A DNA stretch of 64,000 bases from Oscillospiraceae bacterium (GCA_015063785.1 SVTM01000005.1:35841-99840), one strand, 5' to 3'. Counted from the stretch's first letter, positions 8,236 through 64,000 are shown. Numbers and translations are program-made. The notes: a model not told the origin generated them from the letters alone.

Positions 8236-10224
8236 ATGGCAAGAACATTACAAGAACTGCAAAAACAATATAATTCCTCAGCCGCCGCACAAAAAGCCAT
8301 GATGATGAGAGGTCCCGGCGGACCTCGCGGAGGAATGGGTGGAAAAGGTAAACCAAAAAACACAAAACAGACTATAAAAAGACTTTTTGGCTACGTCGGA
8401 AAATACAAGTTCCGTCTTATCGGCGTTATTTTCTGTATGCTTTTTGCCGCTGTATCAGGCCTTATCGGCTCTTTCATGCTTGCACCGATCATCAACAAAA
8501 TTTCGACTTTCATCGGTATCACAGGCGAAATGAGCGCCATGGAAAAAATGACAGACGGAGTTATCTCGTCTATCGTTTCTGCTGTGCAGGAGCCTGTTAA
8601 AAATCTTATAAACTTTATTGATTTTGGCGGTTTTGCCGACGTTATGGTATATATCTTCGTGGCACTCTTCATTCTGCTTTCGGTATATATCGTAGAGGTA
8701 ATCACAAATTATCTGCAAAGCAGAATAATGATGACAGTATCGCAAGGTTCGCTCGAAGCTATCAGAAACGACCTTTTCAGAAAACTTCAAAAGCTGCCCG
8801 TCAGATATTTTGACAATCATCCCACAGGTGAGATAATGAGCCGATTTACCAACGACGTCGATAACATCGGTATGATGCTGGATAACTCGCTGGTTTCTGT
8901 AATCTCCGGTCTTGTAACCCTTATCGGTACTCTTACCTTTATGATAACCACAAATATCTGGCTGACAATAATTACCGTTGTTTTCGTTCCTATCTTCGCA
9001 AAAGGTGGCATGATAATCGCAGGTAAAAGCCGAAAATTCTATTCGGGACAGCAAGCAGCCCTCGGAGCCATCAACGGATATATCGAAGAGACTGTAACAG
9101 GTCAAAAAGTAATCAAAGTTTTCAACCACGAGTCTGATTCTATCGAAGAGTTTTCGTCTCTTAATGACGATCTTCGCGAAAAGCAGTTCAAGGCTCAATT
9201 CTATGGCGGTATAATGGGCCCCATAATGGGAAATACCTCACAGATCAGCTATGCTCTCACCGTAGGTATCGGTGGCGTGCTCATGTGTGTTTCGGGCCTT
9301 ACACCCGGTGCTCTCACCGTATTTGCACAGTACGCAAGAAGGTTTTCTTTCCCCATAAATAACATTTCCCAGCAGGTCAGCTCAATCTTTTCGGCTCTTG
9401 CCGGTGCAGAGCGAGTTTTTGCTGTGATCGACAGCGATCCCGAACCCGCCGACATTGAAAATGCAGAAGACTTCTCTGGCGAAAAGCAGATGGAAGGTCA
9501 TGTTGTTCTCGATAATGTTTCGTTCGGATATATTCCCGAAAAAACTGTTCTCAAAAACATTTCTCTTTATGCAAAACCGGGACAAAAAATTGCCTTCGTT
9601 GGCTCCACAGGTGCGGGAAAAACCACCATCACAAACCTTCTCAACAGGTTTTATGATATCGAAGAGGGCACTATCACCATCGACGGCGTAAATATCAAAG
9701 ATATAAAAATGGACGTACTTCGAAAAAATATTGCCATGGTGCTTCAGGATACTCACCTCTTCTCGGGTACAGTCAGAGAAAACATTCGTTACGCCAGACT
9801 TGATGCCACCGACGAAGAGGTAGAACAAGCTGCAAAAACCGCCAGCGCACATTCTTTCATCATGCGCCTTGACAACGGATATGACACAATTCTCGAAGGC
9901 GACGGAGCAAACCTTTCACAGGGTCAACGCCAGCTTCTCAATATTGCTCGTGCTGCCCTTTCAAAGGCTCCCATTCTCGTTCTCGACGAAGCCACAAGCT
10001 CTGTTGACACACGTACCGAACGCCATATCGAACACGGCATGGACAGACTGATGAAAAACCGCACTACCTTCGTCATCGCCCACAGACTTTCAACCGTCAG
10101 AAATTCAAACGCCATCATGGTTCTTGAAAAGGGCGAAATAATTGAGCGCGGAAGTCACGAAGAGCTTCTTGACATGAAGGGCAGGTATTACGAGCTCTAT
10201 ACAGGAAAAGTCGAGCTCGACTGA
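8236..10224 (+). CDS. Heterodimeric ABC exporter subunit (consensus NBD)
   Basis: GSTGAGKT, LSQGQRQ, LDEATSS, IAHRLST. Confidence 0.93.
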   Translation: MARTLQELQKQYNSSAAAQKAMMMRGPGGPRGGMGGKGKPKNTKQTIKRLFGYVGKYKFRLIGVIFCMLFAAVSGLIGSFMLAPIINKISTFIGITGEMSAMEKMTDGVISSIVSAVQEPVKNLINFIDFGGFADVMVYIFVALFILLSVYIVEVITNYLQSRIMMTVSQGSLEAIRNDLFRKLQKLPVRYFDNHPTGEIMSRFTNDVDNIGMMLDNSLVSVISGLVTLIGTLTFMITTNIWLTIITVVFVPIFAKGGMIIAGKSRKFYSGQQAALGAINGYIEETVTGQKVIKVFNHESDSIEEFSSLNDDLREKQFKAQFYGGIMGPIMGNTSQISYALTVGIGGVLMCVSGLTPGALTVFAQYARRFSFPINNISQQVSSIFSALAGAERVFAVIDSDPEPADIENAEDFSGEKQMEGHVVLDNVSFGYIPEKTVLKNISLYAKPGQKIAFVGSTGAGKTTITNLLNRFYDIEEGTITIDGVNIKDIKMDVLRKNIAMVLQDTHLFSGTVRENIRYARLDATDEEVEQAAKTASAHSFIMRLDNGYDTILEGDGANLSQGQRQLLNIARAALSKAPILVLDEATSSVDTRTERHIEHGMDRLMKNRTTFVIAHRLSTVRNSNAIMVLEKGEIIERGSHEELLDMKGRYYELYTGKVELD

Positions 10225-10440: not shown

Positions 10441-12003
10441 ATGTCACCGGAATCTGAAATCTGGCCGTCAGTGCTCGAAATTTTACGCGGAGAATTGCGT
10501 GATACAACCTTTAACCTTTGGTTCGGAGACCTTGTTCTTCAAAAGCTTGTTGATGACAAGGCGTATCTCCAAACACCAAATCTTTTCAAAAAGAAAACCA
10601 TAGAAACAAAGTTTATGGATCAGCTACGATCCGCATTTGAAAACGTAATGGGATTTGATATTACTCCCTACGTTATTTCAACCGAATCCGAATCATTCGA
10701 AACCCAGTTTTTCAACCTCATCGAAAAAGAAGCACAGGATCAGTTCATAGAAGAACAGAAAAATAAAGGAATCATCTTTGACTCCAATTACATCGCTCCC
10801 GATCCTGATGCCGAACCCGAGCTTGTTGAACCAAAAGCCCATTCCGGCGCCTTCAAACTTTCAAAAAAGAATCTTAATTTTCCGAAGGTTTACAATTCCG
10901 AAAGCGACAGCCTTGAAAACATTCCTCTCGTAAATTACTTTGAGGATCTCGGAAACCGCGACGGAATGCTTCTTATGTCAAGATCTGTTCCCGAATACCG
11001 CCCAAGCTACACCTTCGAAAACTTCGTTGTGGGCGATTCAAACCGCATGGCGTTTGCTTCTTGCGTATCGGTGGCACAATATCCCGCGGCACAAAGTAAC
11101 CCCCTATTTCTTTATGGCCCGCCGGGCATCGGAAAAACGCACCTTCTTTACGCCATTGCTCACTACGTCGAAAAGACACGACCGTCTTTTAATATCGTCT
11201 ATTGCACAAGCGAGGATTTTACAAATGAGCTTGTTTCAGCAATAACCCATAAGTCGACTGCAGATTTCCGCGAAAAATACCGTTCTGCAGACATTCTGAT
11301 GATCGACGACATTCAGTTTATAGGCGGAAAAGAAGCGACACAACTGGAATTTTTTCACACATTCAACACTCTTTATGAGTCGGGCAAGCAAATAATTGTT
11401 GCATCCGACCGGCCACCAAAGGATATCGAAGTACTCGAAAAGCGCATACGTTCAAGATTTGAATCTGGTGCTATAATCGACATAAAAAATCCCGACCCTG
11501 AGCTTCGGTCTGCTATCATCCGCAGAAAAGCCATAGACATGGGTGTTGAAATTCCCAACAGGGCCATAGATTACATTTCAGAAAACGTCCGAGAAAATGT
11601 GCGTCAGATAGAGGGCATCATCAAACACCTCAATATCTACGCTATGCTGAAAAAACAACCCATCACCGAAGAACTCGTTCGCTCGGTGGTTGGAAACGTT
11701 ACCACAGGCCCCGTCGAGATAAGCCCCGAAAAAATAATTGACGCCGTGGCACGGAACACAGACGTTTCAAGAGAAGACATTCTCGGAAAGAGCCATGCAA
11801 AAAATGTTGCCCTTGCCCGCCACATTTCGTGCTTTCTTTTGAGAAAGCTTACCGATATGTCGCTGCAACAAATCGGAAAATTTATCGGTCGCCATCATTC
11901 AACTGTGCACGATTCTATAAGATATATCGAAGACGAGAAAAAGGACGACAAGTCGCTTGACGAAAAGATAAAAACCGTCATGCGTGAACTGGGACAAAGA
12001 TAA
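10441..12003 (+). CDS. dnaA: Chromosomal replication initiator DnaA
   Basis: YTFENFVVG, NPLFLYGPPGIGKTHL, IDDIQF, FFHTFNTL, domain IV HTH; long domain II linker. Confidence 0.97.
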   Translation: MSPESEIWPSVLEILRGELRDTTFNLWFGDLVLQKLVDDKAYLQTPNLFKKKTIETKFMDQLRSAFENVMGFDITPYVISTESESFETQFFNLIEKEAQDQFIEEQKNKGIIFDSNYIAPDPDAEPELVEPKAHSGAFKLSKKNLNFPKVYNSESDSLENIPLVNYFEDLGNRDGMLLMSRSVPEYRPSYTFENFVVGDSNRMAFASCVSVAQYPAAQSNPLFLYGPPGIGKTHLLYAIAHYVEKTRPSFNIVYCTSEDFTNELVSAITHKSTADFREKYRSADILMIDDIQFIGGKEATQLEFFHTFNTLYESGKQIIVASDRPPKDIEVLEKRIRSRFESGAIIDIKNPDPELRSAIIRRKAIDMGVEIPNRAIDYISENVRENVRQIEGIIKHLNIYAMLKKQPITEELVRSVVGNVTTGPVEISPEKIIDAVARNTDVSREDILGKSHAKNVALARHISCFLLRKLTDMSLQQIGKFIGRHHSTVHDSIRYIEDEKKDDKSLDEKIKTVMRELGQR

Positions 12004-12337
12004 TATCAAAGTTTCGGTAGTTTTCCACAACGTTTTTTCCGCAAAACCCGAAATTTTTCATTGTGGAAGCCATTGGAAAAAACGCAAATTTTTCCACATT
12101 ATATTTCCGAAATTTTCCGTATTTTTCCACACGGAAAATTTTGGACAAGCCCTTGCAAAATCAGGATTTTTGCAAAACTTCCATAAAACCCGAAAACCCT
12201 ACTGTAACTATAACTAACCTTTATTATATTCACACTCATATTGCGCGAAAGACAAAAAGAGTTTTCCGAAAGCAAAGTTTCCCAAAAAAGAAGATCGCAA
12301 AAACGCCCTTCATCTTTCAGGAAAGGATAAAGAAAAA
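12004..12337. other. oriC (dnaA-dnaN intergenic)
   Basis: TTTTCCACA at 12021, 12090 and 12123; inverted TGTGGAAGC at 12062; trio-like CTACTGTAACTATAACTA at 12199-12216 followed by an AT-rich tract. Confidence 0.85.
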
Positions 12338-13468
12338 ATGAAATTTACAGCCGACAAAAAAATGCTTGAAAAATCGATTGCTCCCGTTTGCCTTGGAGTT
12401 GCACCTAAAAACACAGATCCCTTGCTCGAAGGTATCTACATCGAAGCAAAAGACGGAACTCTCACCATGTGTTCCTATGACCGAGAAAAGGGTATCAGAA
12501 CAACTCTTGAAGCAGACGTTGAAAGAGAAGGAAAGATCGTAGTTGATGCACAAAAAACATCGGCGATCATCCATTCGCTTCCCGACGGCCCGGTTACTAT
12601 CGAGGCGGACGAAAATCTCATCATGCGCATTGTCACAGACGAAGCGGATTTTCAGATTTCGGGAAAAGATGCATCCAACTATCCCGGTCTTCCAGATGTC
12701 AAGGGCGACCTTAACTATACTCTTCAGCAAAATAAGATCCGCGCAATGATAAACAAGACCCTCTTTGCTGTTTCGCAGGATGATTCCAAGCCCATCTATA
12801 CAGGCTCACTTTTTGAAATAAACGGAAATTCTCTTCGCATCACAGCTCTTGACGGTTTTCGCGTTTCTATGAGATGTGATGAAGGTCTTACCGAAAGAGA
12901 CGACCTTGATCTTCGCTTTATCATGCCCGGCAAGGCACAAAGCGATCTTCTCCGCCTTATTTCGGACAGTGACAGACCGATATCCGTTAACATGGCAAGA
13001 AAACACATCATCTTCACCTTTGACAATGTTTATTTCATCACAAGACTTCTTGACGGTGAATTTCTTGATTACAAGAAGAAGATTCCTCCTCAGCGCACTG
13101 TTGAAGCAAGAATCAACACCGCAAGATTCATTGACAGTATCGAGCGTGCGGCTCTTATCATCGACGAGCGCATAAAAAGCTCGATAAAACTCAGCTTTGC
13201 AAATGCAAATCTTAATATCAGCGTTGCTACCATGCTTGGAAAATTTAAGGACGAATTTTCTTACGAAGAATCAGTGGAAGGAAAGCTCGACATCGGCTTT
13301 AACCACAAGATACTTCTCGATGCTCTTCGCGCCATCAATGAAGAATACGTGACGGTAACTCTTTCGCACAACCTTGGTCCTATGATAATCACTCCCGATG
13401 CAAAATCCGAGGGTAACCCCGAAAGATTCCTCTATATGATCCTTCCTGTTCAGCTCAACAACGGCTGA
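12338..13468 (+). CDS. dnaN: DNA polymerase III beta sliding clamp
   Basis: 376 aa after dnaA; ALDGFRVS, RLLDGEF, IGFNHKIL, YMILPV. Confidence 0.96.
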   Translation: MKFTADKKMLEKSIAPVCLGVAPKNTDPLLEGIYIEAKDGTLTMCSYDREKGIRTTLEADVEREGKIVVDAQKTSAIIHSLPDGPVTIEADENLIMRIVTDEADFQISGKDASNYPGLPDVKGDLNYTLQQNKIRAMINKTLFAVSQDDSKPIYTGSLFEINGNSLRITALDGFRVSMRCDEGLTERDDLDLRFIMPGKAQSDLLRLISDSDRPISVNMARKHIIFTFDNVYFITRLLDGEFLDYKKKIPPQRTVEARINTARFIDSIERAALIIDERIKSSIKLSFANANLNISVATMLGKFKDEFSYEESVEGKLDIGFNHKILLDALRAINEEYVTVTLSHNLGPMIITPDAKSEGNPERFLYMILPVQLNNG

Positions 13469-13477
13469 TATTAAAGC

Positions 13478-14725
13478 ATGAAGCTTGATTTTTTGAAAGC
13501 AAAAAGCTTTCGGAACGTCGAAAATGCGGATATCACTTTTTCTGACGGTGTAAATCTGCTTTACGGAAAAAACGGAGCAGGAAAAACAAACGCGCTTGAG
13601 GCGATTTATCTTTTTGCAATATGCAAAAGCTTTCGCACCAACAGAGATTCCGACTTCATTATGCACGGCAAAGAAAAAAGCGAGATTTCAATAGGTTTTT
13701 CCGATGTATTTATAAAAAGCGGCGAAAAAACGAAGGAAATGTCGATCTCTTTTTTTCCCACCGAAAAGAAAAGATTGCTTTACGAAGGCGTAGGTATAAC
13801 AAAAATATCTGAATTTGTTGGAAGATTCAGAGCTGTTTTTTTCACCCCCGACCATCTTTCTTTGATAAAAGGCTCGCCCGAGGAAAGAAGAAAATTTGCC
13901 GATATGGCTCTTTCGCAGATTAAACCGTCGTATATCCATGCACTTAATGAATATTCGCGCATTCTTTCTCAAAGAAATACCCTTCTGCGTAACGCAAAGC
14001 TTCTGGGAAAATGTGATAAAGACCTGCTTTTTGTATATTCCGAAGCCCTGGCAAATTCTGCTGCGGTTATAACCAAACAGCGTGCGTATTTTGCCGAATA
14101 TCTTGAAAAAGAGGCATCGAAGTTTTATAAAGAGATTTCCGGACAAAAGGAAGATCTTTTTATCCGCTATATGTCCTCTGAAAAAGAAGACCCGAAGGAT
14201 CCCGAAAAAACGAGAGAAAAATATCTTTCGTTGTACACCGCAAATATCGAAAATGAAATAAAATACGGCGCCACAAAGTATGGTCCGCATAAGGACGATT
14301 TGCTTTTTTACATCGGAAAAAACGGCAGATGCGACAGTTTTTTTGACGAAGAAAGTGCAAAAAACTGCGAGTGCGATGGCGACCATTGTGATATTGTCCG
14401 CGATTTTGACGATTGCGAAAAGAAAAAAGAAAAAAATATGATAGAATTTGCTGCCCGAACCTTTGCTTCGCAGGGTCAACAAAGATCCGCAGTTCTTTCA
14501 TTAAAGCTTGCCGAGGGAGAAATAATCCGTTCGCTCACCGGCGAATATCCCGTGTATCTTTTCGACGACGTCTTGTCAGAACTCGATTGTGGCAGAAAAA
14601 GCCATCTGCTTTCGCTTTTTTCTGACAAACAGGTCATCATCACATGCTGTGATGAAAATTCTTTTGATTCATCTCTTGTGAATAACAAAATAAAAGTTGA
14701 AAACGGACTTTATACCAAAGAATAA
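13478..14725 (+). CDS. recF: DNA replication/repair protein RecF
   Basis: FRN, GKNGAGKTN, GPHKDDL, SQGQQRS, LFDDVLSELD. Confidence 0.95.
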   Translation: MKLDFLKAKSFRNVENADITFSDGVNLLYGKNGAGKTNALEAIYLFAICKSFRTNRDSDFIMHGKEKSEISIGFSDVFIKSGEKTKEMSISFFPTEKKRLLYEGVGITKISEFVGRFRAVFFTPDHLSLIKGSPEERRKFADMALSQIKPSYIHALNEYSRILSQRNTLLRNAKLLGKCDKDLLFVYSEALANSAAVITKQRAYFAEYLEKEASKFYKEISGQKEDLFIRYMSSEKEDPKDPEKTREKYLSLYTANIENEIKYGATKYGPHKDDLLFYIGKNGRCDSFFDEESAKNCECDGDHCDIVRDFDDCEKKKEKNMIEFAARTFASQGQQRSAVLSLKLAEGEIIRSLTGEYPVYLFDDVLSELDCGRKSHLLSLFSDKQVIITCCDENSFDSSLVNNKIKVENGLYTKE

Positions 14726-14739
14726 AGAAAGGCAGAACA

Positions 14740-15003
14740 ATGCATATAAACATCGGCTCGAACAAACTTGTCCGAAAAAAAGAGATCATCGGCATTTTTG
14801 ATCTCGACACCGCGTCCCACGAAAAGGACACCAAGGATTTTCTGAAATTCTGTGAAAAAAAGAAGATCCTCGAAATGTGCGGCACAGATCTGCCAAAGGC
14901 ATTTGTTGTCACCGCCGATGATAAAAAGAAAAACAAGAATAAAAACAGCAGGGTGTATCTGACGACACTTTCGTCTGCTTCCCTTGCAGGCAGAAATAAA
15001 TAA
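14740..15003 (+). CDS. remB: RemB/DUF370 family protein
   Basis: MHINIGSNKLVRKKEIIGIFDLD...LPKAFVV; conserved position between recF and gyrB. Confidence 0.88.
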   Translation: MHINIGSNKLVRKKEIIGIFDLDTASHEKDTKDFLKFCEKKKILEMCGTDLPKAFVVTADDKKKNKNKNSRVYLTTLSSASLAGRNK

Positions 15004-17139
<2,136 letters not shown>

Positions 17140-53903: not shown

Positions 53904-54782
53904 TCATATTTTAAGATTCATCAGCACTACGGCAACTATGCCGATTGCAACGCTTGCAATCTGTCTTCGCGAAAACTTTTCGCGGAAAAGCAACAGCGAT
54001 ACAAAAAAGCTGATCACGATGCCCAAGCCCGTTTTTACCGGAGAAATGAACGAAAGGGGCAGATAGTTGTAGGTGATAAGGGTGAGAAGATTGTTTATTC
54101 CGTTGAAAACACCTGCAAATATTCCATAGACAAGGCCGTATCTGAAGGTCGATTTGAAATCTTTGCGCTCAAAGATAAACCCGAGGATAAAGAGGATGAT
54201 CGCTGCGCCACCGAGTGATATTATCAGAAATTCGTTGTTAAATCCGTCGCCAAGGTGATCGTGTTCGACTTTCCCGATTATGGCAATAATCGCGTTTGAG
54301 ATCACCGTCAGAAGTGTGCAGACCAGCCATCCGACCGTGAGCTTTTTGTCTTCTTTTTCACCTTTTGTGTAGTTCATCAGAAAAACAGAGGCGAAGATGA
54401 GAACAAGGGCCACGTAGGTTATGGGATATGTCGGCTCTTTAAGGAAGATTATACCGTAAAAAATGGGGATTATACCGCTGAAGGCAGTGAAAAGACGGGT
54501 AAGTCCAAAGGATCCCGACCGAAAGGCAAGATAGGTGGTGTAAAAACCCGTGGCATACATGAAGCAGTTGGCAATGCCGTACTGAATTACCTCGTGCGAA
54601 AAATGCAGACCGTTTTTGTCTGTTACAAAAAAATATACCATGGCGAAAAGGCAGATGATGGCGTTGAAATGCATTCCGCCCGAACCGTGCTTTTTGCCGT
54701 GCTGTTTCACAAGGATCGCTTCAAACTGATGGCAGATAAGCCCTGCAATTATCAGCAGCATCCCGATCATGCTTTCTTTCAT
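53904..54782 (-). CDS. DMT/EamA-like 10-TM transporter
   Basis: Two repeats ending IIFLKE and LLFREK. Confidence 0.8.
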   Translation of the reverse strand: MKESMIGMLLIIAGLICHQFEAILVKQHGKKHGSGGMHFNAIICLFAMVYFFVTDKNGLHFSHEVIQYGIANCFMYATGFYTTYLAFRSGSFGLTRLFTAFSGIIPIFYGIIFLKEPTYPITYVALVLIFASVFLMNYTKGEKEDKKLTVGWLVCTLLTVISNAIIAIIGKVEHDHLGDGFNNEFLIISLGGAAIILFILGFIFERKDFKSTFRYGLVYGIFAGVFNGINNLLTLITYNYLPLSFISPVKTGLGIVISFFVSLLLFREKFSRRQIASVAIGIVAVVLMNLKI

Positions 54783-54880
54783 AAACTGCCTCCGAGTATT
54801 TTGATACATGTATTATATCACATTGCGGCAAATAGTAAATATAAAAATTCCATGTTTTGATGGAATTTTTCTATTTTGGG

Positions 54881-54922
54881 GAAAACAAGAGCTCATCCGT
54901 TTCGGAAAAACAGACGAGCTCT
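54881..54922 (-). terminator. Intrinsic terminator after the glycyl radical enzyme gene
   Basis: Minus-strand stem AGAGCUCGUCUGUUU/AAACGGAUGAGCUCU (with G-U pairs) then UGUUUU. Confidence 0.65.
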
Positions 54923-54932
54923 ATTTCTTTTT

Positions 54933-56897
54933 TCATACGCAGTATTCTGTTCTGTCAATAACTGTCTGTTGCAATTCGGGGGTCAGACGGTTGAAATATT
55001 CCGAATAACCGCCGATGCGAACGATGAGATTTCCGTGTACATCGGGATTTTTGACGGCATCAATCAGATCTTCCTTGCTGACGCAGGTTATTTGCATCTG
55101 CATACCGCCATTTTTGAAATATCCGTTTGCCAGAGCCTTTATGGTTTTTGATGCCTGCTTTGCGCTGAGTTTTACGTTAAGAATCGGTGTTCCAGGCATT
55201 TTTTGTTGGCAAAGGCTTGATGCGCTGTTAAGAAGTGCTGTGATACCGGATTTGTCGTTTCCGTGTATTGAACCTATCGAATCGCATAAAGGATCGCCTG
55301 CGGCTCTGCCGTCGGGGGTGCCACCAACGCACTTTCCTGCATCGGTATATGTGGTAAACTGGATCGAAGCAGGCAAAAATTTTCCGCCCGAATATGGGAT
55401 TTTGCCGTCAAACAAAGAGCACACGTCAAAGGTCAGGCGCTGTGCCATGGTGTTGGCTTCGTCGGAATCTGTGCCGTGACGGGGGATTTCCTGAAAATTC
55501 AGGAAATTGACTCCCTCGTCAAGATGCTTTAACACCTGCTCGCCGCTGAACTTGCGACCGTCAAACACGAGATGCTTTATGACAAGCAGCGAATCCAAAA
55601 CGTTGATAAGTCCTGCCAGGTTGATGACACTCCAGGTATATCTTGCGCCGCCGTCATTGTAGTCCTTTTCTTTTTCAATACAATCGTCGATAAGTAGTGT
55701 ACGCATCGGCTGTGGGCGGAACTGTGCACGCGATTTTTGGCATTCACACACCTTGTCAAGCACGGCGGATATCTCCTGACGGCATTTTTCGATAAACTCT
55801 TTGTAAAACCCATCAAAACTTTCGGCGGACGGCAATTTTTCTCGCATAAAACGTTCGAAGATCAGAGCGACGTTTATGCCCGCATCCAGCGAGCCGACGT
55901 TGCTGATGCCCGTGAGCATGGTTTCGGTACATCCGCCGCCGCAAAAACGAAGTCTGTCCTCCTTTGGAATATCGGGAAAAAGGTCGTAAAGGGCTTTTTG
56001 ATAACCGTCTTCGTTGTATAAGCTGGGCGAGCCTCCGCCGGCAAGGATGGAATCTATCGCCGCATCCCAGATTTCCTGCGGCATATCGGGCGTGACTCTC
56101 AATTCAAGGCTTGGCCTGCGCATTCCCTTGCAGGCTTTAAGGCATTGCAGAGTCAGTGGATTGTATTCGGGACCAAGACATCCCGACCAGCCGTTGTTTG
56201 CGTCGATATTCCAGAAAAGACATCTGAAGGTTTCGGTCATATCCTCGCCGCGGTAAAAATCAAAAAGATCGGCGTCGAGATGGCCTATATTGTCGCAACC
56301 GTCCATGTAATATACAAAATTCCAGCAAACCAGAGCTTCATACAGCGTTTCGGCAGGGCCAAAGGGGACTTTTTCAAGCGCTTTGCACAATTCGCTTTTG
56401 GGAGCTCTTTTTTTCAGCAGATCAAGAGAACGCCCGTGAAAGCTTTTTATTCCGTCAAGTACGTCCAAAAGGCCCTGGCGCAGATTATCGTTTTTCATTT
56501 TTTCCACGCGCTGACGGTAGGAGGAAAGTCCTTCGCGCACGATACGGCGGAAATTCGGAAAAGAGTGGGTGTACATATTGCCGCCGACGGTATGTTCGTT
56601 GGGGACAGTGAGTTTGTAAACGTCAATATCCTGTCTTAAGACCTGAGTTGCGATCGGATCCTGCTGCCCAAGTCCGTCCCAGTCGACTGCTACCGTGTAT
56701 GAATAGTCGGGGCGTACGCACAGACCGACGTAAAAAGGTCCGCAGGGATAAAGAGGCTCGCCGCCGTATTCGGGCAGAGGACGGTTTTCAAGATATCGCC
56801 GTGTTGCCCGTGAAAAACGGACGAAGGGCGATGCGTTCGGCTCCTCGTAAAAACCTGCCGCATAGTATTCGTTCAATTTTTTGAATCTTTCCACCAT
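54933..56897 (-). CDS. Glycyl radical enzyme (PFL-like), short, substrate unknown
   Basis: C-terminal LIVRIGGYSEYF glycyl loop; GGCTE Cys loop; TPDGR. Confidence 0.9.
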   Translation of the reverse strand: MVERFKKLNEYYAAGFYEEPNASPFVRFSRATRRYLENRPLPEYGGEPLYPCGPFYVGLCVRPDYSYTVAVDWDGLGQQDPIATQVLRQDIDVYKLTVPNEHTVGGNMYTHSFPNFRRIVREGLSSYRQRVEKMKNDNLRQGLLDVLDGIKSFHGRSLDLLKKRAPKSELCKALEKVPFGPAETLYEALVCWNFVYYMDGCDNIGHLDADLFDFYRGEDMTETFRCLFWNIDANNGWSGCLGPEYNPLTLQCLKACKGMRRPSLELRVTPDMPQEIWDAAIDSILAGGGSPSLYNEDGYQKALYDLFPDIPKEDRLRFCGGGCTETMLTGISNVGSLDAGINVALIFERFMREKLPSAESFDGFYKEFIEKCRQEISAVLDKVCECQKSRAQFRPQPMRTLLIDDCIEKEKDYNDGGARYTWSVINLAGLINVLDSLLVIKHLVFDGRKFSGEQVLKHLDEGVNFLNFQEIPRHGTDSDEANTMAQRLTFDVCSLFDGKIPYSGGKFLPASIQFTTYTDAGKCVGGTPDGRAAGDPLCDSIGSIHGNDKSGITALLNSASSLCQQKMPGTPILNVKLSAKQASKTIKALANGYFKNGGMQMQITCVSKEDLIDAVKNPDVHGNLIVRIGGYSEYFNRLTPELQQTVIDRTEYCV

Positions 56898-57005
56898 ATC
56901 ACAATACCTCCGATATATTTCTACTTGTATTCTAACGCGGCTTGTGGTATTATTATAGTAATATTATTCCTGACTTCGAGTAAAAACGTTTCAAAAGGAG
57001 ATTTT

Positions 57006-57872
57006 ATGGATATACCAAAACTAAATATCGCCGTTGAAAAAGCGCATTGGAGCCACGCCGACAACTTTGAGGGCGGCGAATGCGAATATATAAAATCCTT
57101 TGTTCACCGAAATTATACAATAGGATATCACACTCACAGTTTTTATGAACTCAATATTGTTCTGGGCGGCGAAGGGTGTCACTATATCAGACAAATGTCG
57201 TGCCTTGCAAAGCCCGGATGCGTTTTTCTAATCCCTCCGCACGTACAGCACGGATATATAAACAAGAGCGGTCTTGATGTTTATCACATGTTGATACACA
57301 GGGATTTTATTGACGATTGCTTTGCGGAATTTAAAAACACAGAAGGCTTCTTCCTTTTGTTTGAAACAGAGCCGTATCTGCGTGCGCACTATAACGAGAA
57401 TATGTTTCTCACCCTGTCGCAAGGGGAGCTTGCGCAGATAAAGCAGGATATCGACGTGATAAACGAATGCGAGGCTTTGCACAACGCCAACCTTTTTATC
57501 AACGCCATCGCAAAAAAGATATTGTGCCAGCTTTGCCTTCTTATCACAAAGCAATCGGGTATTGCAGGCGATCATCTGCAGGCAAAAAAGGAATTGATAG
57601 GGGTTGCCGATTGTCTGAATTACATCCATCAGAATTTCGGCGAAAAGCTGCCCGTTTCCGAGCTTGCGGACAAGCTTCATATGTCCCGTTCAACTTTTAT
57701 ACGGCAATTCACAAAGATCTGCGGATGCTCCCCCCACGAATATATTCAGCAGTACCGCATAAAAAAGGCAAGGGAATATCTGAAAGATCCCACAAAAACG
57801 GCATCGTTTGTGGCGCAGGAATGCGGTTTTTACGATGCATCCCACATGAGAAAATATTTGTCGGCAGAATGA
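57006..57872 (+). CDS. AraC family regulator
   Basis: HTHSFYEL cupin; HMSRSTFIRQF; VAQECGFYDASH. Confidence 0.92.
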   Translation: MDIPKLNIAVEKAHWSHADNFEGGECEYIKSFVHRNYTIGYHTHSFYELNIVLGGEGCHYIRQMSCLAKPGCVFLIPPHVQHGYINKSGLDVYHMLIHRDFIDDCFAEFKNTEGFFLLFETEPYLRAHYNENMFLTLSQGELAQIKQDIDVINECEALHNANLFINAIAKKILCQLCLLITKQSGIAGDHLQAKKELIGVADCLNYIHQNFGEKLPVSELADKLHMSRSTFIRQFTKICGCSPHEYIQQYRIKKAREYLKDPTKTASFVAQECGFYDASHMRKYLSAE

Positions 57873-57876
57873 AGGC

Positions 57877-57922
57877 AAAAGAGCGTACCCGTTTTTGTTT
57901 AAAACGGGTACGCTCTTTTTTC
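57877..57922. terminator. Bidirectional intrinsic terminator
   Basis: AAAAGAGCGTACCCGTTTT/AAAACGGGTACGCTCTTTT. Confidence 0.88.
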
Positions 57923-58008
57923 TTGCAGACAATGAGATCGGATATTTCTTCAAATTGCAAAGCTTTGCCTCAAATCTCTGTTGGCAAAATTTTCAGGCGG
58001 GTTGCCCA

Positions 58009-58022
58009 GACACAAGGAAAAT
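58009..58022 (+). repeat. 14-bp direct repeat copy A (putative att site)
   Basis: GACACAAGGAAAAT identical to 62274-62287; lies inside an AATTTTC-22bp-GAAAATT inverted repeat (57988-58023). Confidence 0.7.
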
Positions 58023-58090
58023 TGCCCCGTCCCCAAACTGTTCGCAAGTATTTCTTGTTGCGGTGGGGGATTTTGCGTTGTGATTGTGTA

Positions 58091-60862
58091 TTATTCAAAA
58101 GCTTCGCAGAGGGGGCTCATATTTTCATCCCAAAGCATAACTTTTATTTTTGCGTGATTGGCAAACTCCTCAAAGGTATAGTAATCTGCTTTTCCTCTAT
58201 TCAAAAACAAGGGAACGGTATTGACTTTTTCAAGTCTTCCGTATTCATCATAGCCTGCAATATAAACAATGTAGTTTCCCGCCTCGGGGCAGCACACTGT
58301 GATAACCCCAAAATCGTTGCTGCAGTCTGAGATATCAAAGTCTTCAACCTCGGTTACGTTGAAATGCGTGAATCCTGCCAGATATGAGCCGGTTGAATTG
58401 TGTGCATAAACGTAAATGCTATAATCACGCATCTCGTATCTCGCGTTGTTTATGACAAGAGTTGCTGTACTTTCACCGGTTTCGCTGTCGGTTTCAAATC
58501 TTGTGCCAAATGCCGATTCCGAAAAGATATTCTTCATTTCGTCTTGGTCATATGCAACGGCTGTGCCGTCCTCATCGAGCTTTTCAAATCTCCACTCAAC
58601 ATCTGTCATATTTTTTGCTTTAAATGTAAAGGTCAGATCTTCGCCGTCAATACATTCCTGCGATTCAAGATTCTGTGTGATTTCGGGCTTTATTACCTTG
58701 AGTGTAAAAGCAACGGTGTTTTTGGAATTGAACGAAACCTTACCAAGCGCATTTTTCATCTCATATCCCACAGACATACTTCTTGCTGCCGACTCGGGTA
58801 CATCCTTGAATGTAACGGTTGTTTTGTAAATGCCTGAGGGCATTATTTTATGTGACTGAACATATTCACAACCGGTTTCTTCGGCATATTCTTTGAGATT
58901 ATAGAAATCGGTATTACTGCCCTGCTTTACCTGCACGATCCAGTCAACATTTTCCGCATAATCTGCCCACAGGGTAAAGGTTGCATCTCCGCCCGCTTCA
59001 AATTCTCCGCCGCTAAAGGACAAAACCTGCGGCAGATCGCCAAATGTTGTTGTGGCATATTTCGAATTTGTCTTTGAACCGTCAGTACCTGTGATCTCAC
59101 AGTAAAACTGTGCATTTGATACACCGTCTGCCGTCACCGTCAAGCAAGGAGTTGTTTCGCCCTGTATCTGTCCTTCGTCAAACAACATAGATATAAACTG
59201 TTGGGTAAGAGGAATTTTTTGTCCTGCCGCAACAACATACCATTGATATGCCGCAGCATGGTCGGCTGTAACGGAAAGCTTTGCATATTCACCGGGTTTT
59301 ACCGTAGTTGACTTCGGCTGAGTAGTAATAACAGCCGCCTGGGGCTCCGGAAGCACGGTTACCTCATAAGTCTTGTTAAATGTGCTTACGTGTGCACTGC
59401 GGATTACGGAAATATTCACATCTATTGTAACTCCGTTGGGATAATCTGCATAATTAACAATACCGTCTTCAATTATCCGGTTGGTTCCGTCTTCGCGGCG
59501 GGTTACGTTTGTTCTTACTTCAAATTCCCCTTCCATATAATCGGGAATACTGTATATCACCTCAAATGTTTCGGTCATAGATGTATCACGAACCAGTTGC
59601 GTAACCTTGGATTCGGGATCGGGCGTCGGGTAAAATTCGGTAGAAAGGAGCGAAGTACTTACAACCGTCAATCTCAGATGGCTGGTATTTACATCCTCAA
59701 GAGTACATTTAGACAGATTCAGTTGCTTTGTTTGATCAGAATCGACAATTTTCATATCAACTAAAGCAAAAGGAGAAATAAGGCTTGAAAACGGTCTTTC
59801 CAAAAGCTCAGAGAATGGATCTCCAAATGTGCCGCTTAAACCGGAAACAGCAATACCGCTTCTTCCTATATATCCGATTGCACCGTCGAAAATTCCACCG
59901 TTAATTTTCGGGAAAGTGAGCTTATCAATTTCCGCACCGCTATATCCATTATAGGTATGCATATCCGTATAAGCACTATGGAAATGATGTATTGCATAAC
60001 CGTCGGAGGCAAAAACACCGCCGTTTATCACAAGGTCAGTAGGACGGGACTGCAATTGTGCGACACCATCGGTACAGCATGTTCCAAATGCGCTTAGCTC
60101 ACGCTGATTAAGTCCCTTCATTCCCAACTCATCACCAAGCTCAGCTCCTGCATCCGTACCAAGAGACCTTGCAGCAAAAATGCCGCCGTTAATCTCAACG
60201 TGTCCCACGCTGTCAGCTATTACGGCACCACGATAATTGGTGACAATGTTGTTTGTTCCGTTGCTGTTCAGGTTTACAATCCGTGACTTCAACTGAAAAA
60301 GCCCGTCATCAATGATAAGCTTGCAAATCGGTTCAGGGCAAAGAATGTATGGAACAGTATTTCTGTTGACAGAAGATTCTCTCACCAAAAGAGCAGCTAT
60401 CTGAGTATCAGAATGGCGGTAAGCATCCATAAATATTCCACCGCCTCCAACAGAGTCGGTTATTCGTAATACCGATCCTACTTCGTTGTTGATACGGCTC
60501 ATCTCGATTGAAATAAAATTCCCGTTTTTATTTTTGTCTTCGGGATTGATATCCGTACACGAAAGAACATGACCGTTGAAATCAAACGTAACATAACCGC
60601 ACATCTGTACTGAACGACTCTCAACTTCATAAAAATCTGTTGAAGTGGTCAAATCCATATGAAGATCCTTATTAAGCTTCATTATGTAATGCGTATCAGG
60701 GTTATCAGACCACCAGACATTATACCGGAAAGCTTCGTAAAAATCTCTCCACGATGAAATATAGATTACCTTGTAGTCTACATTTTCGGTGGATGCATAC
60801 ACAGCAGGAAATAAATTGAACATGATAACAAAACAAAGCAATATTCCGATTATTCTTTTCAT
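58091..60862 (-). CDS. Large secreted/surface protein with Ig-like domains
   Basis: Signal peptide; INGG repeats; ITTQPKS..YQWY..FYCEITG Ig fold; C-terminal KVMLWDENMSPL. Confidence 0.8.
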   Translation of the reverse strand: MKRIIGILLCFVIMFNLFPAVYASTENVDYKVIYISSWRDFYEAFRYNVWWSDNPDTHYIMKLNKDLHMDLTTSTDFYEVESRSVQMCGYVTFDFNGHVLSCTDINPEDKNKNGNFISIEMSRINNEVGSVLRITDSVGGGGIFMDAYRHSDTQIAALLVRESSVNRNTVPYILCPEPICKLIIDDGLFQLKSRIVNLNSNGTNNIVTNYRGAVIADSVGHVEINGGIFAARSLGTDAGAELGDELGMKGLNQRELSAFGTCCTDGVAQLQSRPTDLVINGGVFASDGYAIHHFHSAYTDMHTYNGYSGAEIDKLTFPKINGGIFDGAIGYIGRSGIAVSGLSGTFGDPFSELLERPFSSLISPFALVDMKIVDSDQTKQLNLSKCTLEDVNTSHLRLTVVSTSLLSTEFYPTPDPESKVTQLVRDTSMTETFEVIYSIPDYMEGEFEVRTNVTRREDGTNRIIEDGIVNYADYPNGVTIDVNISVIRSAHVSTFNKTYEVTVLPEPQAAVITTQPKSTTVKPGEYAKLSVTADHAAAYQWYVVAAGQKIPLTQQFISMLFDEGQIQGETTPCLTVTADGVSNAQFYCEITGTDGSKTNSKYATTTFGDLPQVLSFSGGEFEAGGDATFTLWADYAENVDWIVQVKQGSNTDFYNLKEYAEETGCEYVQSHKIMPSGIYKTTVTFKDVPESAARSMSVGYEMKNALGKVSFNSKNTVAFTLKVIKPEITQNLESQECIDGEDLTFTFKAKNMTDVEWRFEKLDEDGTAVAYDQDEMKNIFSESAFGTRFETDSETGESTATLVINNARYEMRDYSIYVYAHNSTGSYLAGFTHFNVTEVEDFDISDCSNDFGVITVCCPEAGNYIVYIAGYDEYGRLEKVNTVPLFLNRGKADYYTFEEFANHAKIKVMLWDENMSPLCEAFE

Positions 60863-60927
60863 ATTGGTACCCTCCTTTCAGGGTTTACATTTATCTGTTT
60901 GTCATTTTTGTCAAATTAAATATGTTT

Positions 60928-61887
60928 TTATTTTGCCGGGTACTTTTCGGGATCCATGACAGACAAGATCCTGTCATACAGATAGTTTTTTTCTTCGGCG
61001 GTTGTTCTTGAGTCGTCGTAGCAAAGCTCAGCAACCGTAAAAACACTTACATTTTGAGATTGCATACCGTATTCGGTCACACTTTCACCGTCTTTTTTGT
61101 AGGTGATATAGGGTACCGCGGTGTACTCTTCGGCATAGTGTGTTTCGTCTATCTGCAGCACACATACCGTGAAGTATACATACTCGTCGGTAATCTTGAA
61201 AAGATTTACGGCAGGTGCCGTTTTTGCCTTCTTTGTTTTTCCGTCAATGACGGTGACAAAATCTTTTACGAGCTTTTCGTCACCAAGATATTTCTTTGGC
61301 AATACAACGCTTCCGAAACCAAGATCCGTATCCGATGGAGACTGGGGCTGCTCAAGAGTTTCATAAACCGATTTCGGAATAGAGAAAACAAATCTCAGGC
61401 CCTGCTCACCGTTCATTTTTATCTGTGCGCCTTCAAAGGTCATGCAGGTGGGTGTATTGTATTCAACTGCTTTTACATCGGGAGTGGAGCTGCCCGATGC
61501 ACCCATTTTGAGATATAAAGTTTTGCCTTCGATATCTGAAGTCCCGAGGGCGTTTTCTATTCTTGAGCGCTCTATCAAAAATTCGTATTCGCCGCAAGGC
61601 TCGTCGATCTGATCTATGTAGATGATGCTTTTTTCAAAACCATCCGTGTCCGATATGTCTTTGCCGAGAAGCAAAAGAGACACGCTTCTGGTCTTTTCGG
61701 GAACGGTGTATTTTATTCTGGTTATGACCGTGTGTTTATCACGTTCACCGAATATGTCTGAGTATTCTTCAAATTCAACCGAGTCGATCGTGACAACGGC
61801 ATCATCCACCGCAAGACACGGAACCACAGACACAAGCAGCAGTATCAGCATTGCTGCAAAACTGAGATAACGATAAAATGTCTTCAT
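60928..61887 (-). CDS. Secreted hypothetical protein
   Basis: Signal peptide; IIYIDQ domain and GAQIK..QGLRF domain; AGGAG SD. Confidence 0.8.
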   Translation of the reverse strand: MKTFYRYLSFAAMLILLLVSVVPCLAVDDAVVTIDSVEFEEYSDIFGERDKHTVITRIKYTVPEKTRSVSLLLLGKDISDTDGFEKSIIYIDQIDEPCGEYEFLIERSRIENALGTSDIEGKTLYLKMGASGSSTPDVKAVEYNTPTCMTFEGAQIKMNGEQGLRFVFSIPKSVYETLEQPQSPSDTDLGFGSVVLPKKYLGDEKLVKDFVTVIDGKTKKAKTAPAVNLFKITDEYVYFTVCVLQIDETHYAEEYTAVPYITYKKDGESVTEYGMQSQNVSVFTVAELCYDDSRTTAEEKNYLYDRILSVMDPEKYPAK

Positions 61888-62068
61888 TCAAATCACTCCT
61901 TAATGTTGTTTTGGGGCTTGAGCATATGTATTACCGAACCATATCCGAAAAGTATGGAATGTTCGGCCCGAATATTTGTAATGTAACTTTATTGTAACGC
62001 CGTTTTCATATTTTTTCAAGGGTTTTATGATGAAAATTACTTATATCGTCACTTTGTGAATAAAATTT

Positions 62069-62143
62069 AAAAAAAGCAGACCTTTTTCCCAAAGGTCTGC
62101 TCAGACTGAAATGCTCACCTATATTAAATATAAGTGAGCATTT
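62069..62143 (-). terminator. Double hairpin terminator after the spoIVB remnant
   Basis: AGCAGACCTTT/AAAGGTCTGCT with a minus-strand T tract; AAATGCTCAC/GTGAGCATTT. Confidence 0.7.
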
Positions 62144-62146
62144 TTA

Positions 62147-62278
62147 TTATTTAATTTTCTCCGCTTTGATGAGCATATTTTCTATAAAAATCCCGTAACC
62201 ACGTGTAGGATCGTTAACGAATACATGAGTTACTGCACCAACAAGCTTGCCGTTCTGGATTATCGGCGAACCCGACAC
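62147..62278 (-). pseudogene. spoIVB: 3' remnant of SpoIVB peptidase (S55) gene
   Basis: (V)[35 protein letters not shown] matches the SpoIVB C-terminus; homology stops at the catalytic GMSGS motif. Confidence 0.9.
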
Positions 62279-62287
62279 AAGGAAAAT
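62274..62287 (+). repeat. 14-bp direct repeat copy B, at the spoIVB breakpoint
   Basis: GACACAAGGAAAAT identical to 58009-58022. Confidence 0.7.
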
Positions 62288-62312
62288 CGGCGTGGGACAA
62301 CAAAAAATATGC

Positions 62313-63026
62313 TTACATTTGTTTTCGGCAACCGTCGACAAGGTAATTCTGGCCCGAAATATAGCTTGCTTCGTTGCTTGCCACAAACAAAATCACATTT
62401 GCAATTTCATCATAGGTGGCGGCGCGGCCCACAAACGAAAAATCTTTCATGGCGTCGCTTCCGTCGGGAGCTACGCTTCCGGGCGAAACGCAATTTACGG
62501 TGATACCTTTGTCGGACACAGCTTTTGCAAGCGCTTTTGTAAAGGATATAACCGCACCCTTTGACATGGAATAATCAACAAACCAGCTGAGACCGTAAAC
62601 ACCCGCAACCGAGCCGATGTTTACAATTCTGCCATAGCCGTTTTCGATCATGGACGGCAAAACCGCATGCGACAAATACATGGTGCCCAAAATATTAACG
62701 TCTATTACTTTCTTCCACTGCTCTGAAGAAGTGCTTGCAAAATCGGAAGCAGGGAATACCGCTGCATTGTTTATAAGAATATCTGTTTTTCCGAATTTTT
62801 CAGCCGCCTTTGCAATCGCGTTTCGTGCGGCGGCCTCATCAGATACGTCAAAATTTATTGCCATAAAGTTTTCTGTATATTTTTTTATCTCTCCGCAGGT
62901 TTCGGAAAGATCCGAAATGTCCGAAACAACAACATTTGCCCCGTTTTTTGCAAAGCCTATGGCTGTCGCTCTTCCGATACCCTTGGCGGCACCTGTTACA
63001 AAAGCTGTTTTACCTGTAAAATCCAT
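62313..63026 (-). CDS. SDR oxidoreductase (FabG-like)
   Basis: [24 protein letters not shown]. Confidence 0.93.
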
Positions 63027-63126
63027 AGTATCAACCTCCTTGTTTTATAAATACAGTATACCACTTAAAAACCATTGTTTAAATGACTGAAAATACATTT
63101 AATTTAGCCGAAAATGTACAAAGCGT

Positions 63127-63155
63127 TTGACAAAACCGCGTGTTTTATATACAAT
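63127..63155 (+). promoter_or_regulatory. SigA promoter of araC
   Basis: TTGACA-17bp-TACAAT. Confidence 0.75.
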
Positions 63156-63176
63156 ATAAAAAGCGGAGGTGAAATT

Positions 63177-63932
63177 ATGGACGAAGAAGCTTTTGTTATT
63201 ACCGAGTTTTTATCGATAAGTAAGCCGATAAACCATCAGGGAATAAGTTTTTATATTAACAAACGAGAAAGCTCTGCTTTGATTTTTCCTATACACGGGG
63301 AAATCGAATTTTCGTGGGAAACGGGAAAGGTGATTGCCGATGCCGACCACCCCGTTTTTATTCAGGAGGGCATGAGTTACTTAAACTCGTGCATGGAAAA
63401 TGCACAAAGCATAATGATAAACATCAAAGCAAAAAGCAACAAAGAAAAGATTTTTTGGCTTTTACCGCCCGACAGAGAGCATTTGCAAAAATGTTATGAC
63501 GAAATAATAGTTCTGAATGCAAATCCTACGGCAAGAAAAAGATCCAGAATATTTGAAAAAATATATCAACTGCTCGGGGAATGTTTCCCGTATGAACCCG
63601 GAGACAACAACTCGTTATTGTCCCCCGCGCTTGAAACAATTGAAAAATTTTATAACAAAAGTGACCTGACTCTTGATTTCCTGGCTGAAAGCTGTAACAT
63701 AAGCAAATCGTATATTCACAAACTTTTCAGAAAAGAGTTTGGAATGACTCCTTTTCAATATATTACAAGAATACGCATGAATCAGGCGAAAACTTTGCTG
63801 CTCGAGATGTTTCCTGTGGGGGAAGTTGCTCTTATGGTGGGATATTCCGACATTTATCAGTTTAGCAGGGCATTTAAACGATTTTATAAAATTTCTCCTG
63901 ACAAATTCAGATTCTCAAGAAAACCAATATGA
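63177..63932 (+). CDS. AraC family regulator
   Basis: ISKSYIHKLFRKEFGMTP, VGYSDIYQFSRAFK; GGAGG SD. Confidence 0.92.
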   Translation: MDEEAFVITEFLSISKPINHQGISFYINKRESSALIFPIHGEIEFSWETGKVIADADHPVFIQEGMSYLNSCMENAQSIMINIKAKSNKEKIFWLLPPDREHLQKCYDEIIVLNANPTARKRSRIFEKIYQLLGECFPYEPGDNNSLLSPALETIEKFYNKSDLTLDFLAESCNISKSYIHKLFRKEFGMTPFQYITRIRMNQAKTLLLEMFPVGEVALMVGYSDIYQFSRAFKRFYKISPDKFRFSRKPI

Positions 63933-63945
63933 TGCTTGTCCATCA

Positions 63946-63978
63946 AAAACGCTCGTCTAAATCTATAGACGAGCGTTT
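63946..63978 (+). terminator. Intrinsic terminator
   Basis: AAACGCTCGTCTA/TAGACGAGCGTTT. Confidence 0.8.
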
Positions 63979-64000
63979 CTCTTATCTAAATTTCTCTGCT

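Follow-up and report, generated by a model that had tools for sequence, protein, structure and literature searches.

A tandem array of small accessory-gene cassettes, probably accreted at the spoIVB gene of an Oscillospiraceae bacterium

Here, we focus on the right-hand end of a 64,000-nucleotide stretch of DNA from an Oscillospiraceae bacterium (GCA_015063785.1, SVTM01000005.1:35841-99840), which we call the window. The source genome (G000) is a 2.50-Mb draft in 67 contigs, and the window corresponds to contig C49:35841-99840. Near its end, a short motif repeated on the minus strand brackets a gene cassette, and one copy of the motif is joined to a fragment of spoIVB, the gene for an important sporulation protease. 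We conclude, with a probability of roughly 0.7, that small accessory-gene cassettes have accumulated in tandem downstream of spoIVB through site-specific recombination, and that this region is the distal part of the resulting array. The anatomy of the junctions, their recurrence in other genomes, an empty site in a close relative, one cassette that occupies two array positions, and exact boundaries are observed.

Junctions, displaced gene ends, and an empty site

The 14-mer ATTTTCCTTGTGTC occurs exactly twice in the window, in both cases on the minus strand, at 58009-58022 (copy A) and 62274-62287 (copy B), with a spacing of 4265 bp. Both copies are intergenic and follow the stop codons of minus-strand genes: copy A lies 69-82 nt past the stop of a gene encoding a 923-aa protein (58091-60862), and copy B lies 26-39 nt past the stop of an SDR gene (62313-63026). 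These coordinates bear out the description given in an earlier note on this DNA, made from the sequence alone. Searching the whole source genome with the 12-, 13-, and 14-mer forms of the motif returns the same two places only. When up to two mismatches are allowed, there are six matches versus 0.84 expected, a count reached in 0 of 100 shuffles. The earlier note took the 14-mer to be the att motif itself, and that proposal does not survive: the motif, with only two copies in the genome, represents a local version of the proximal half of a ~28-nt conserved arm. Specifically, ATTTTCCTTGTGTC is the proximal half of an eroded arm variant plus the crossover, drawn from two neighboring cassette ends.

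Copy B leads in frame into a displaced 3' end of spoIVB, as the note had claimed. In the open reading frame (ORF) at 62147-62386, residues 37-72 match Peptidase_S55 (S55) positions 175-210 of 210 (E 1.6e-19). The displaced fragment, fragB, spans 62147-62278 on the minus strand and scores E 1.2e-18 when the genome as a whole is searched. Across the source genome, the Pfam S55 profile identifies four places: one intact spoIVB on contig C27, whose open, full-length frame of 410 aa is matched over positions 2-210, and three fragments, every one of which covers positions 175-210. One of the fragments is fragB, one lies 6 bases past the window end, near the end of C49, and the third is found 1.7 kb past the intact gene, close to the C27 end. 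Each fragment starts with GTG-TC(A/G)-GG where the intact gene has ATG-TCA-GG, i.e., at the Met codon of GMSGSP, which we take to be the active-site serine motif of SpoIVB. Each then reaches its own stop codon, followed by its own hairpin terminator. Compared with the resident 3' end, the three fragments have 22, 20 (fragB), and 8 synonymous codon differences and 2, 3, and 1 non-synonymous differences, respectively. Because the differences are nearly all synonymous, the fragments evolved as working gene ends, not as decaying local duplicates. A single GH32 gene lies between the intact spoIVB and the first fragment, an AraC regulator gene and an SDR gene lie between the next two fragments, and two genes for putative secreted or surface proteins lie between the window fragment and copy A.

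The arm that precedes the fragments has the consensus TGTTGTCCC-yay-TTGACAACA-sTC, contains a 7-bp inverted repeat, and is followed by G/CTG and spoIVB from codon 175 onward. It stands at a fixed offset in all 29 fragments with known flanks, with 0-8 mismatches to its 18 specified positions. The 13 copies that start with ATG (12 intact genes plus a longer duplicate in genome G329) show 9-12 arm mismatches and nothing similar upstream. The first codon of the 29 fragments is GTG in 22 and CTG in 7. Only TG is found in every intact site (ATG) and in every junction (G/CTG) alike; the single base ahead of it agrees with the arm, and those behind it agree with the gene. The three arms in the source genome are eroded forms of the consensus, with 4, 5, and 7 mismatches, and a search of that genome for further arm copies with up to four mismatches found none beyond C49:99977. 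The longer G329 duplicate (L054, G329:C88:33000-44500, near 9106, minus strand) covers profile positions 166-210, carries the gene's own upstream sequence in place of the arm, and follows a Fic-domain gene. It is a different kind of junction at spoIVB.

The same anatomy recurs well beyond the source genome. In a first sample of 61 genomes that included G000, spoIVB is present in 56, and fragments starting at position 175 (181 in G006, a relative of the same genus) are present in 8, among them other genera and another family. Among 401 genomes of the order that are at least 90% complete, 374 have spoIVB and about 48 have more than one S55 match, an upper bound in which split genes and second full-length copies are counted. 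Re-examination of five of these multi-match genomes revealed 175-210 fragments in all five, with a maximum of eight in G296. A strict junction pattern, which provides a lower bound, finds 16 sites in 10 of the 401 genomes, spread over six families, and finds 0 in a reversed control. Gaps between successive junctions are mostly ~0.7 to 7 kb. The tandem pile-up at a spoIVB-derived site that the note had proposed is evident from the three fragments in G000 and from the up to eight in relatives. A site-specific accretion array at spoIVB is real and recurrent.

On one G296 contig (G296:C34, L045/L046), cassettes with different cargo have at least 60 nt of right-end sequence in common upstream of the junction. 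There, one junction gap is only 737 nt, and another extends over 21 kb and contains genes for huge Ricin-lectin and surface proteins together with a two-component system. A phage origin for the arm was considered and rejected: the arm pattern has two matches in IMG/VR, both in unrelated coding sequence that has no spoIVB.

G006 provides the empty site. On one contig, G006 carries spoIVB, the genes for the 319-aa and 924-aa proteins, a fragment, the AraC272 and SDR genes, and an EamA gene. Past the SDR gene, the arm ...TTGTTGTCCCGCGCCGATTTTCCTTGTGTC continues without a gap into AGGGCAACCCGCCTGAAAATTTTGCC..., which is the sequence, here called rem, that follows copy A in the source genome (95% identity over 79 nt). 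Because the arm next to copy B (P_B) directly joins rem there, G006 has the empty site for exactly the 4265-bp cassette, which we call T1. The break in this close relative, a test that the note had called for, falls exactly at the motif, and the two copies behave as recombination junctions around a discrete, recombinase-free cassette. In this central respect, the earlier note's idea of a mobile cassette is largely right.

T1 is not missing from G006. It lies on contig C17, right behind the 5' part of spoIVB, and is 96.6% identical to its G000 counterpart over 4185 nt. The homology starts at the first base after the TG of the Met codon. The right end of T1 is lost in G006, where a deletion fuses the 924-aa gene to the next fragment. 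The neighboring cassette, T2, is 98.0% identical between the two genomes over 1818 nt, and the order of T1 and T2 is opposite in G000 and G006. Both identities exceed the 90.4% of the 5' part of spoIVB, and the 3' end of spoIVB in G006 is also mosaic. Cassettes are likewise found in common between genera. Specifically, G012 and G008, which belong to different genera, carry a common cassette that shows 91.5% identity over 1340 nt from the crossover onward, and blastn finds no match between their spoIVB 5' parts at E<=1e-8.

Metagenome contigs, from four runs in four studies, reveal strain-level polymorphism exactly at these junctions; the public data consist of 24 runs kept as contigs, not reads. 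In the X3 and X8 contigs, 60 nt at 57978-58037 are deleted at a 5-nt microhomology, and copy A and half of rem are gone. The X2 and X3 contigs join 54877 to 57949 and lack a 3.07-kb block (54878-57948) that is also absent from G006. Depth over the fragment is approximately three-fold in metagenome contigs. No clean junction between the arm at copy A (P_A) and fragB is present among the contigs of the 24 runs, which say nothing on whether circles exist. An apparent joint of 62319 to 58018 in X8 contains 32 unmatched letters and could not be interpreted.

A linked serine recombinase and the competing explanations

Arrays that carry a recombinase at their head carry one of the serine class. In G048, a metagenome-assembled genome (MAG) of the Acutalibacteraceae, a gene for a 594-aa large serine recombinase (LSR) with Resolvase, Recombinase, and Zn_ribbon_recom domains begins no more than 16 nt after the intact spoIVB. 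Downstream are genes for an AAA ATPase, an S8 peptidase, and a BlaI/BlaR1-like pair, then the arm and fragment 1, and then two recombinase-free cassettes. The spoIVB 3' segment beside the LSR gene completes the intact gene. Two further loci, L056 (95% protein identity) and L064 (98%), harbor the same element family, with arm, GTG, and fragment immediately upstream of the LSR gene. Thus, the LSR directly follows a spoIVB 3' segment at three of the three loci of this family. In L056 and L064, the homology to G048 starts right at the crossover. Taken with the arrangement at these loci, this makes the spoIVB 3' segment and the recombinase gene the left end of one element. No recombinase of any other type was found in 118 ORFs from relatives' arrays.

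The LSR element of G048 and its cargo occupy L034 3931-11206. At L064 (3029-3190), residue 177 is the last to match the LSR, and S8-peptidase sequence takes over from there, marking this LSR as a decayed copy. L056 (~2355-2395) and L064 (~2145-2180) also contain perfect arm-like hairpins with a T run and no spoIVB fragment, ~150 nt upstream of the real junction. These hairpins may be relic junctions, or the arm may be derived from a terminator hairpin.

From the junctions and the linked gene, we infer that an LSR is the enzyme, that TG is the crossover, and that the site is regenerated and its cassettes re-sorted. The attB would lie inside spoIVB, at the Met codon of GMSGSP, with exchange within or next to the TG. 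The TG pattern is consistent with the 2-bp staggered exchange of serine recombinases. The left end of an element would be its own copy of the last ~42 spoIVB codons, from the serine codons to the stop, plus a terminator, and the right end would be the conserved ~28-nt arm. Upon integration, spoIVB would remain intact, and its former 3' end would be displaced downstream, behind the arm and G/CTG. Because the left arm mimics the 3' end of the gene, the left junction would again be attB-like, the right junction would be attP-like, and the site would be regenerated. The left arm would resemble the target's right arm because it must encode a functional SpoIVB end. A regenerated site could accept repeated integrations, with the newest element nearest the gene, and arrays could grow. 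Recombination between the attB-like head and a distal arm-fragment junction would release a multi-cassette circle, and re-entry of that circle at an internal junction would permute the cassette order, as between G000 and G006. The enzyme would most likely be an LSR supplied by a related element. The G000 cassettes encode no recombinase and for that reason resemble cis-mobilizable elements (CIMEs).

Several observations weigh against this reading. At the window's own copy A, an nhmmer profile built from 37 fragment bodies finds no match in the sequence that follows, even at E<=10. This qualifies the note's account of the two copies, and we reject a decayed fragment at this place, the resemblance of the first 12 nt by eye to the fragment start being too weak to use. 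P_A lacks the conserved distal half of the arm, and P_A and P_B have 12 nt in common for which a 2-bp crossover gives no reason. In the source genome, the link from the intact gene on C27 to the array on C49 is unassembled, with no other contig overlapping the ends, and is inferred from G006. In G077, two arm-fragment junctions do not share a contig with the intact spoIVB (they are at the ends of C20 and C32; L052/L053) and differ in their left flanks, and the intact gene is followed directly by TraX and spo0A genes; either the array lies elsewhere in that genome or the assembly misleads.

The recombinase itself supplies the remaining difficulties. The LSR is known from one element family, at three loci with 95-100% protein identity, and its sole carrier among the 401 sampled genomes, G048, belongs to a different family from G000. 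A search for further examples returned two loci in genome contigs and one in metagenome contigs, and no further candidate in the order sample exceeded 35% identity. Next in rank are LSRs with 29-35% identity, and not one of those that could be checked adjoins spoIVB. A tblastn search for LSR remnants (E<=1e-5) found none in the other loci (L001-L054), with the exception of three unlinked LSR-like genes of G000. Such remnant-free loci are odd if every cassette is a decayed LSR element. The three G000 genes, on C66, C21, and C41 and not on the array contigs, are 29-33% identical to the LSR; a cognate recombinase was sought in G000 and, with these distant and unlinked candidates, not found. Tyrosine recombinase domains (PF00589) have no match on C27 or C49, and the G000 matches are all on other contigs.

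The scarcity of the LSR invites a different emphasis, in which the recombinase-free unit of fragment, cargo, and arm is the normal mobile form, excised as a circle that an LSR then inserts, in trans, at the regenerated attB. Such a platform would be integron-like in function, with a protein-coding attB. The small size of the cassettes, indicated by the ~0.7 to 7 kb that mostly separate junctions, their freedom from LSR remnants, and the near-consensus arms of many LSR-free cassettes in six families speak for it, as do the right-end sequence of at least 60 nt common to G296 cassettes of different cargo, the swapped order of T1 and T2, the 91.5% identical cassette of two genera, and the presence of the LSR in only 1 of 401 genomes. 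However, no circle or excision product was observed in the data, which are contigs only, and the G000 arms, at 4-7 mismatches, are eroded as relics would be. Standard LSR rules bar exchange between attP and attP-like sites, such that moves of single distal cassettes need extra assumptions, and re-sorting could also proceed by homologous recombination between 108-nt repeats, one fragment being mosaic. We consider this platform unlikely. A related and broader proposal is that an LSR in trans captures, stacks, and re-sorts recombinase-free cassettes, bounded on the left by the SpoIVB catalytic C-terminal module and on the right by the hairpin-containing arm, at a self-regenerating attB. The notion is that this system would be the serine-recombinase counterpart of the integron and would draw on a pool of metabolic and surface-protein cassettes that gut Clostridia of different families share. 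We put this proposal forward as a tentative possibility.

Homologous recombination could also be asked to explain everything, via uptake of foreign DNA and RecA-dependent exchange over spoIVB 3' sequence and its fragments, with no dedicated recombinase. Homologous exchange between the 108-nt repeats probably does occur as well. Specifically, the fragment past the window end (C49:99846-99953, window-equivalent 64006-64113) is mosaic: after its first base (G versus the gene's A), 61 nt equal the intact gene, and then 60 nt equal the C27 fragment, a pattern that suggests gene conversion among the copies or else a chimeric assembly at the contig end. The mosaic 3' end of spoIVB in G006 is of the same tenor. 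As a complete account, however, homologous recombination is very improbable, given that the fragments all share one starting nucleotide, their ATG replaced by GTG or CTG, that a conserved non-spoIVB arm precedes 29 of 29 fragments when homologous exchange would neither create nor conserve one, and that an LSR adjoins the junction at three loci. Finally, the 14-mer could recur by chance, one copy happening to lie next to an unrelated remnant of a spoIVB pseudogene, and no mobile unit would be involved. The absence of a spoIVB fragment at copy A and the mere two occurrences of the 14-mer are compatible with coincidence. Nonetheless, the difference between G006 and G000 is exactly the segment between the copies, the mismatch-tolerant count was equaled in none of the 100 shuffles, and the same junction anatomy appears in many genomes, leaving coincidence with almost no credibility.

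The cassettes of the window and their surroundings

T1 extends from 62275 to 58011 on the minus strand and consists, in order, of the spoIVB fragment as its left end, a terminator, a promoter-like site, a 319-aa gene, the 923-aa gene, and arm P_A. A terminator scan identifies a hairpin at 62074-62102 (minus strand) after the stop of fragB, and a second hairpin, at ~62105-62140, was read from the sequence directly. The earlier note had placed a terminator after each copy of the motif. This holds for copy B; after copy A, the sequence shows a 15-bp hairpin with T runs (~57884-57925) that the scan does not list. The promoter-like site upstream of the 319-aa gene (61991-62019, minus strand; TTGAAA-17-TACAAT) is a consensus match only, at 10 of 12 positions. 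The first cargo gene (60928-61887, minus strand) encodes a protein of 319 aa that has a hydrophobic N-terminus and belongs to no Pfam family. The second (58091-60862, minus strand) encodes the 923-aa putative surface protein, whose N-terminus is hydrophobic and which matches Ig_3 weakly. The Atlas neighbors of this protein are Ig-like, beta-helix, or dockerin proteins, all with scores <0.9, and serve as leads only. A 24-nt match to the 3' untranslated region of the 923-aa gene, in G002:C47, was rejected as a terminator-like hairpin between unrelated genes.

The right end of T1 is arm P_A, which spans 58011-58037 on the minus strand (...TTTGGGGACGGGGCAATTTTCCTT+GTG) and holds most of copy A. 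Beyond it lies the terminal remnant, rem (57944-58010, minus strand; TC-TGGGCAACCCGCCTGAAAATTTTGCC...), at the place where the oldest spoIVB 3' end is expected. The remnant is not recognizable as spoIVB. On the other side, arm P_B (62276-62303, minus strand; TTGTTGTCCCACGCCGATTTTCCTT+GTG) holds most of copy B and forms the right end of T2. Its distal half agrees with the conserved arm, and G006 has the same arm after the same SDR gene. T2 (62276-64000, minus strand) is cut by the window end and contains an AraC-type regulator gene (63114-63932, plus strand) and the SDR gene (62313-63026, minus strand). Its own spoIVB fragment is the one just outside the window, at window-equivalent 64006-64113. 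T2 is flanked by an arm-fragment junction on each side. T1 has a full left junction, and its right junction consists of a half-eroded arm with no recognizable spoIVB.

Next to the remnant is the variable 3.07-kb block (54878-57948, no strand assigned), which encodes a glycyl-radical enzyme similar to pyruvate formate-lyase (54933-56897, minus strand) and an AraC regulator (56925-57872, plus strand). No activase gene adjoins that of the glycyl-radical enzyme, and neither end of the block has an arm or fragment. Pairs of glycyl-radical enzyme and activase are recurrent cargo in the arrays of G096 and G231.

The note had also reported a window free of integrase, transposase, and relaxase, and Pfam searches agree: none of these domains was found in 48 window ORFs (8 ORFs in 53904-64000 at E<=0.01 and 40 others at E<=1e-12). 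A 338-aa protein encoded at 48803-49819 matches IstB-like ATPases (E 2e-13), with no transposase adjoining; it probably serves as a helicase loader of the DnaC type and not as a component of an IS21 element. The window also contains dnaA, dnaN, recF, and gyrB at 10441-17139, which places the replication-origin region inside it, ~45 kb away from the cassette array.

Relation to known systems and biological meaning

The array resembles an integron in being an ordered series of small, mostly recombinase-free cassettes at a fixed chromosomal site, with a conserved recombination sequence at the cassette end. It differs in having no IntI tyrosine recombinase, attI, or attC, and in that the repeated unit includes a fragment of a protein-coding gene. 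Many cassettes possess their own regulators, and T1, the one scanned, has a promoter-like site and a terminator. Thus, with no IntI, no attC, and cassettes that bring their own regulatory signals, the spoIVB array is not an integron. The integron-like machinery that the earlier note envisaged gives way to a linked LSR.

Composite islands of the staphylococcal cassette chromosome (SCC, SCCmec) reside at rlmH (orfX) in staphylococci and are moved by Ccr large serine recombinases. Their target gene stays functional, their att sequences are repeated, recombinase-free pseudo-SCC units stand in tandem, and the cargo is adaptive. The likeness to the spoIVB array lies in an LSR that would act at the 3' end of a conserved chromosomal gene, a gene kept functional, and tandem recombinase-free units. 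SCC differs in host clade, target gene, and cargo, which here comprises metabolic and surface genes, and the replaced gene end is much longer here.

The skin element in sigK, SPbeta in spsM, and others employ LSRs of the SpoIVCA/SprA type, interrupt their genes, and excise in the mother cell to restore them. In sporulation-gene intervening elements, an LSR targets a sporulation gene of Firmicutes (bioRxiv 10.1101/2022.02.25.481979), and to that extent they resemble the spoIVB array. Because spoIVB is uninterrupted, with an open frame of 410 aa, the array is not a skin-type intervening element.

The pattern agrees with that of CIMEs, which have lost their integration genes and kept their att sites, and beside which new elements integrate to give tandem arrays (PMC5704250). 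The example given there is that of the ICESt1/ICESt3-related islands at fda in Streptococcus thermophilus (PMC5704250, citing Pavlovic et al. 2004). The likeness is in a target gene preserved by a replacement end and in recombinase-less, att-bounded elements in tandem. The window cassettes contain no integration or transfer genes, and they encode no LSR, which the element of G048, L056, and L064 does. Tandem elements do stand at one intact target gene: G000 has three fragments and the intact gene, and the G006 array is contiguous with spoIVB. In those CIME cases, the integrases are tyrosine integrases and the replaced ends are short, whereas here the sole linked recombinase is an LSR and ~42 codons are replaced, including the active-site serine motif. 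Also unlike those cases, the spoIVB arrays have 1-5 genes per cassette and up to 8 units. The same source states that the site-specific integrative and mobilizable elements with serine recombinases characterized so far disrupt their target genes (PMC5704250); at spoIVB, by contrast, the target gene is kept intact. In the partly available literature on spoIVB with serine recombinase, attB and integration, or integrase, no description of the site was found; the supplementary tables of LSR surveys, which may list it, were outside this search.

The spoIVB array marks a place where hard-to-study gut anaerobes, from at least six families of one order, have gained genes repeatedly and with precise boundaries. 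Its design is unusual: a serine-recombinase element would enter the active-site codon of an important sporulation protease and repair the gene with its own catalytic end, and the repaired end would automatically recreate the target, allowing cassettes to stack. The signature of arm, G/CTG, and SGSP... offers a simple means to recognize recently acquired accessory genes in MAGs, and the array explains contig breaks at spoIVB. The recombinase, together with its natural attB/attP pair, could become a genetic tool for these bacteria. Finally, if recombinase-free cassettes are mobilized in trans, the system would represent a second, mechanistically independent route to integron-like gene capture.

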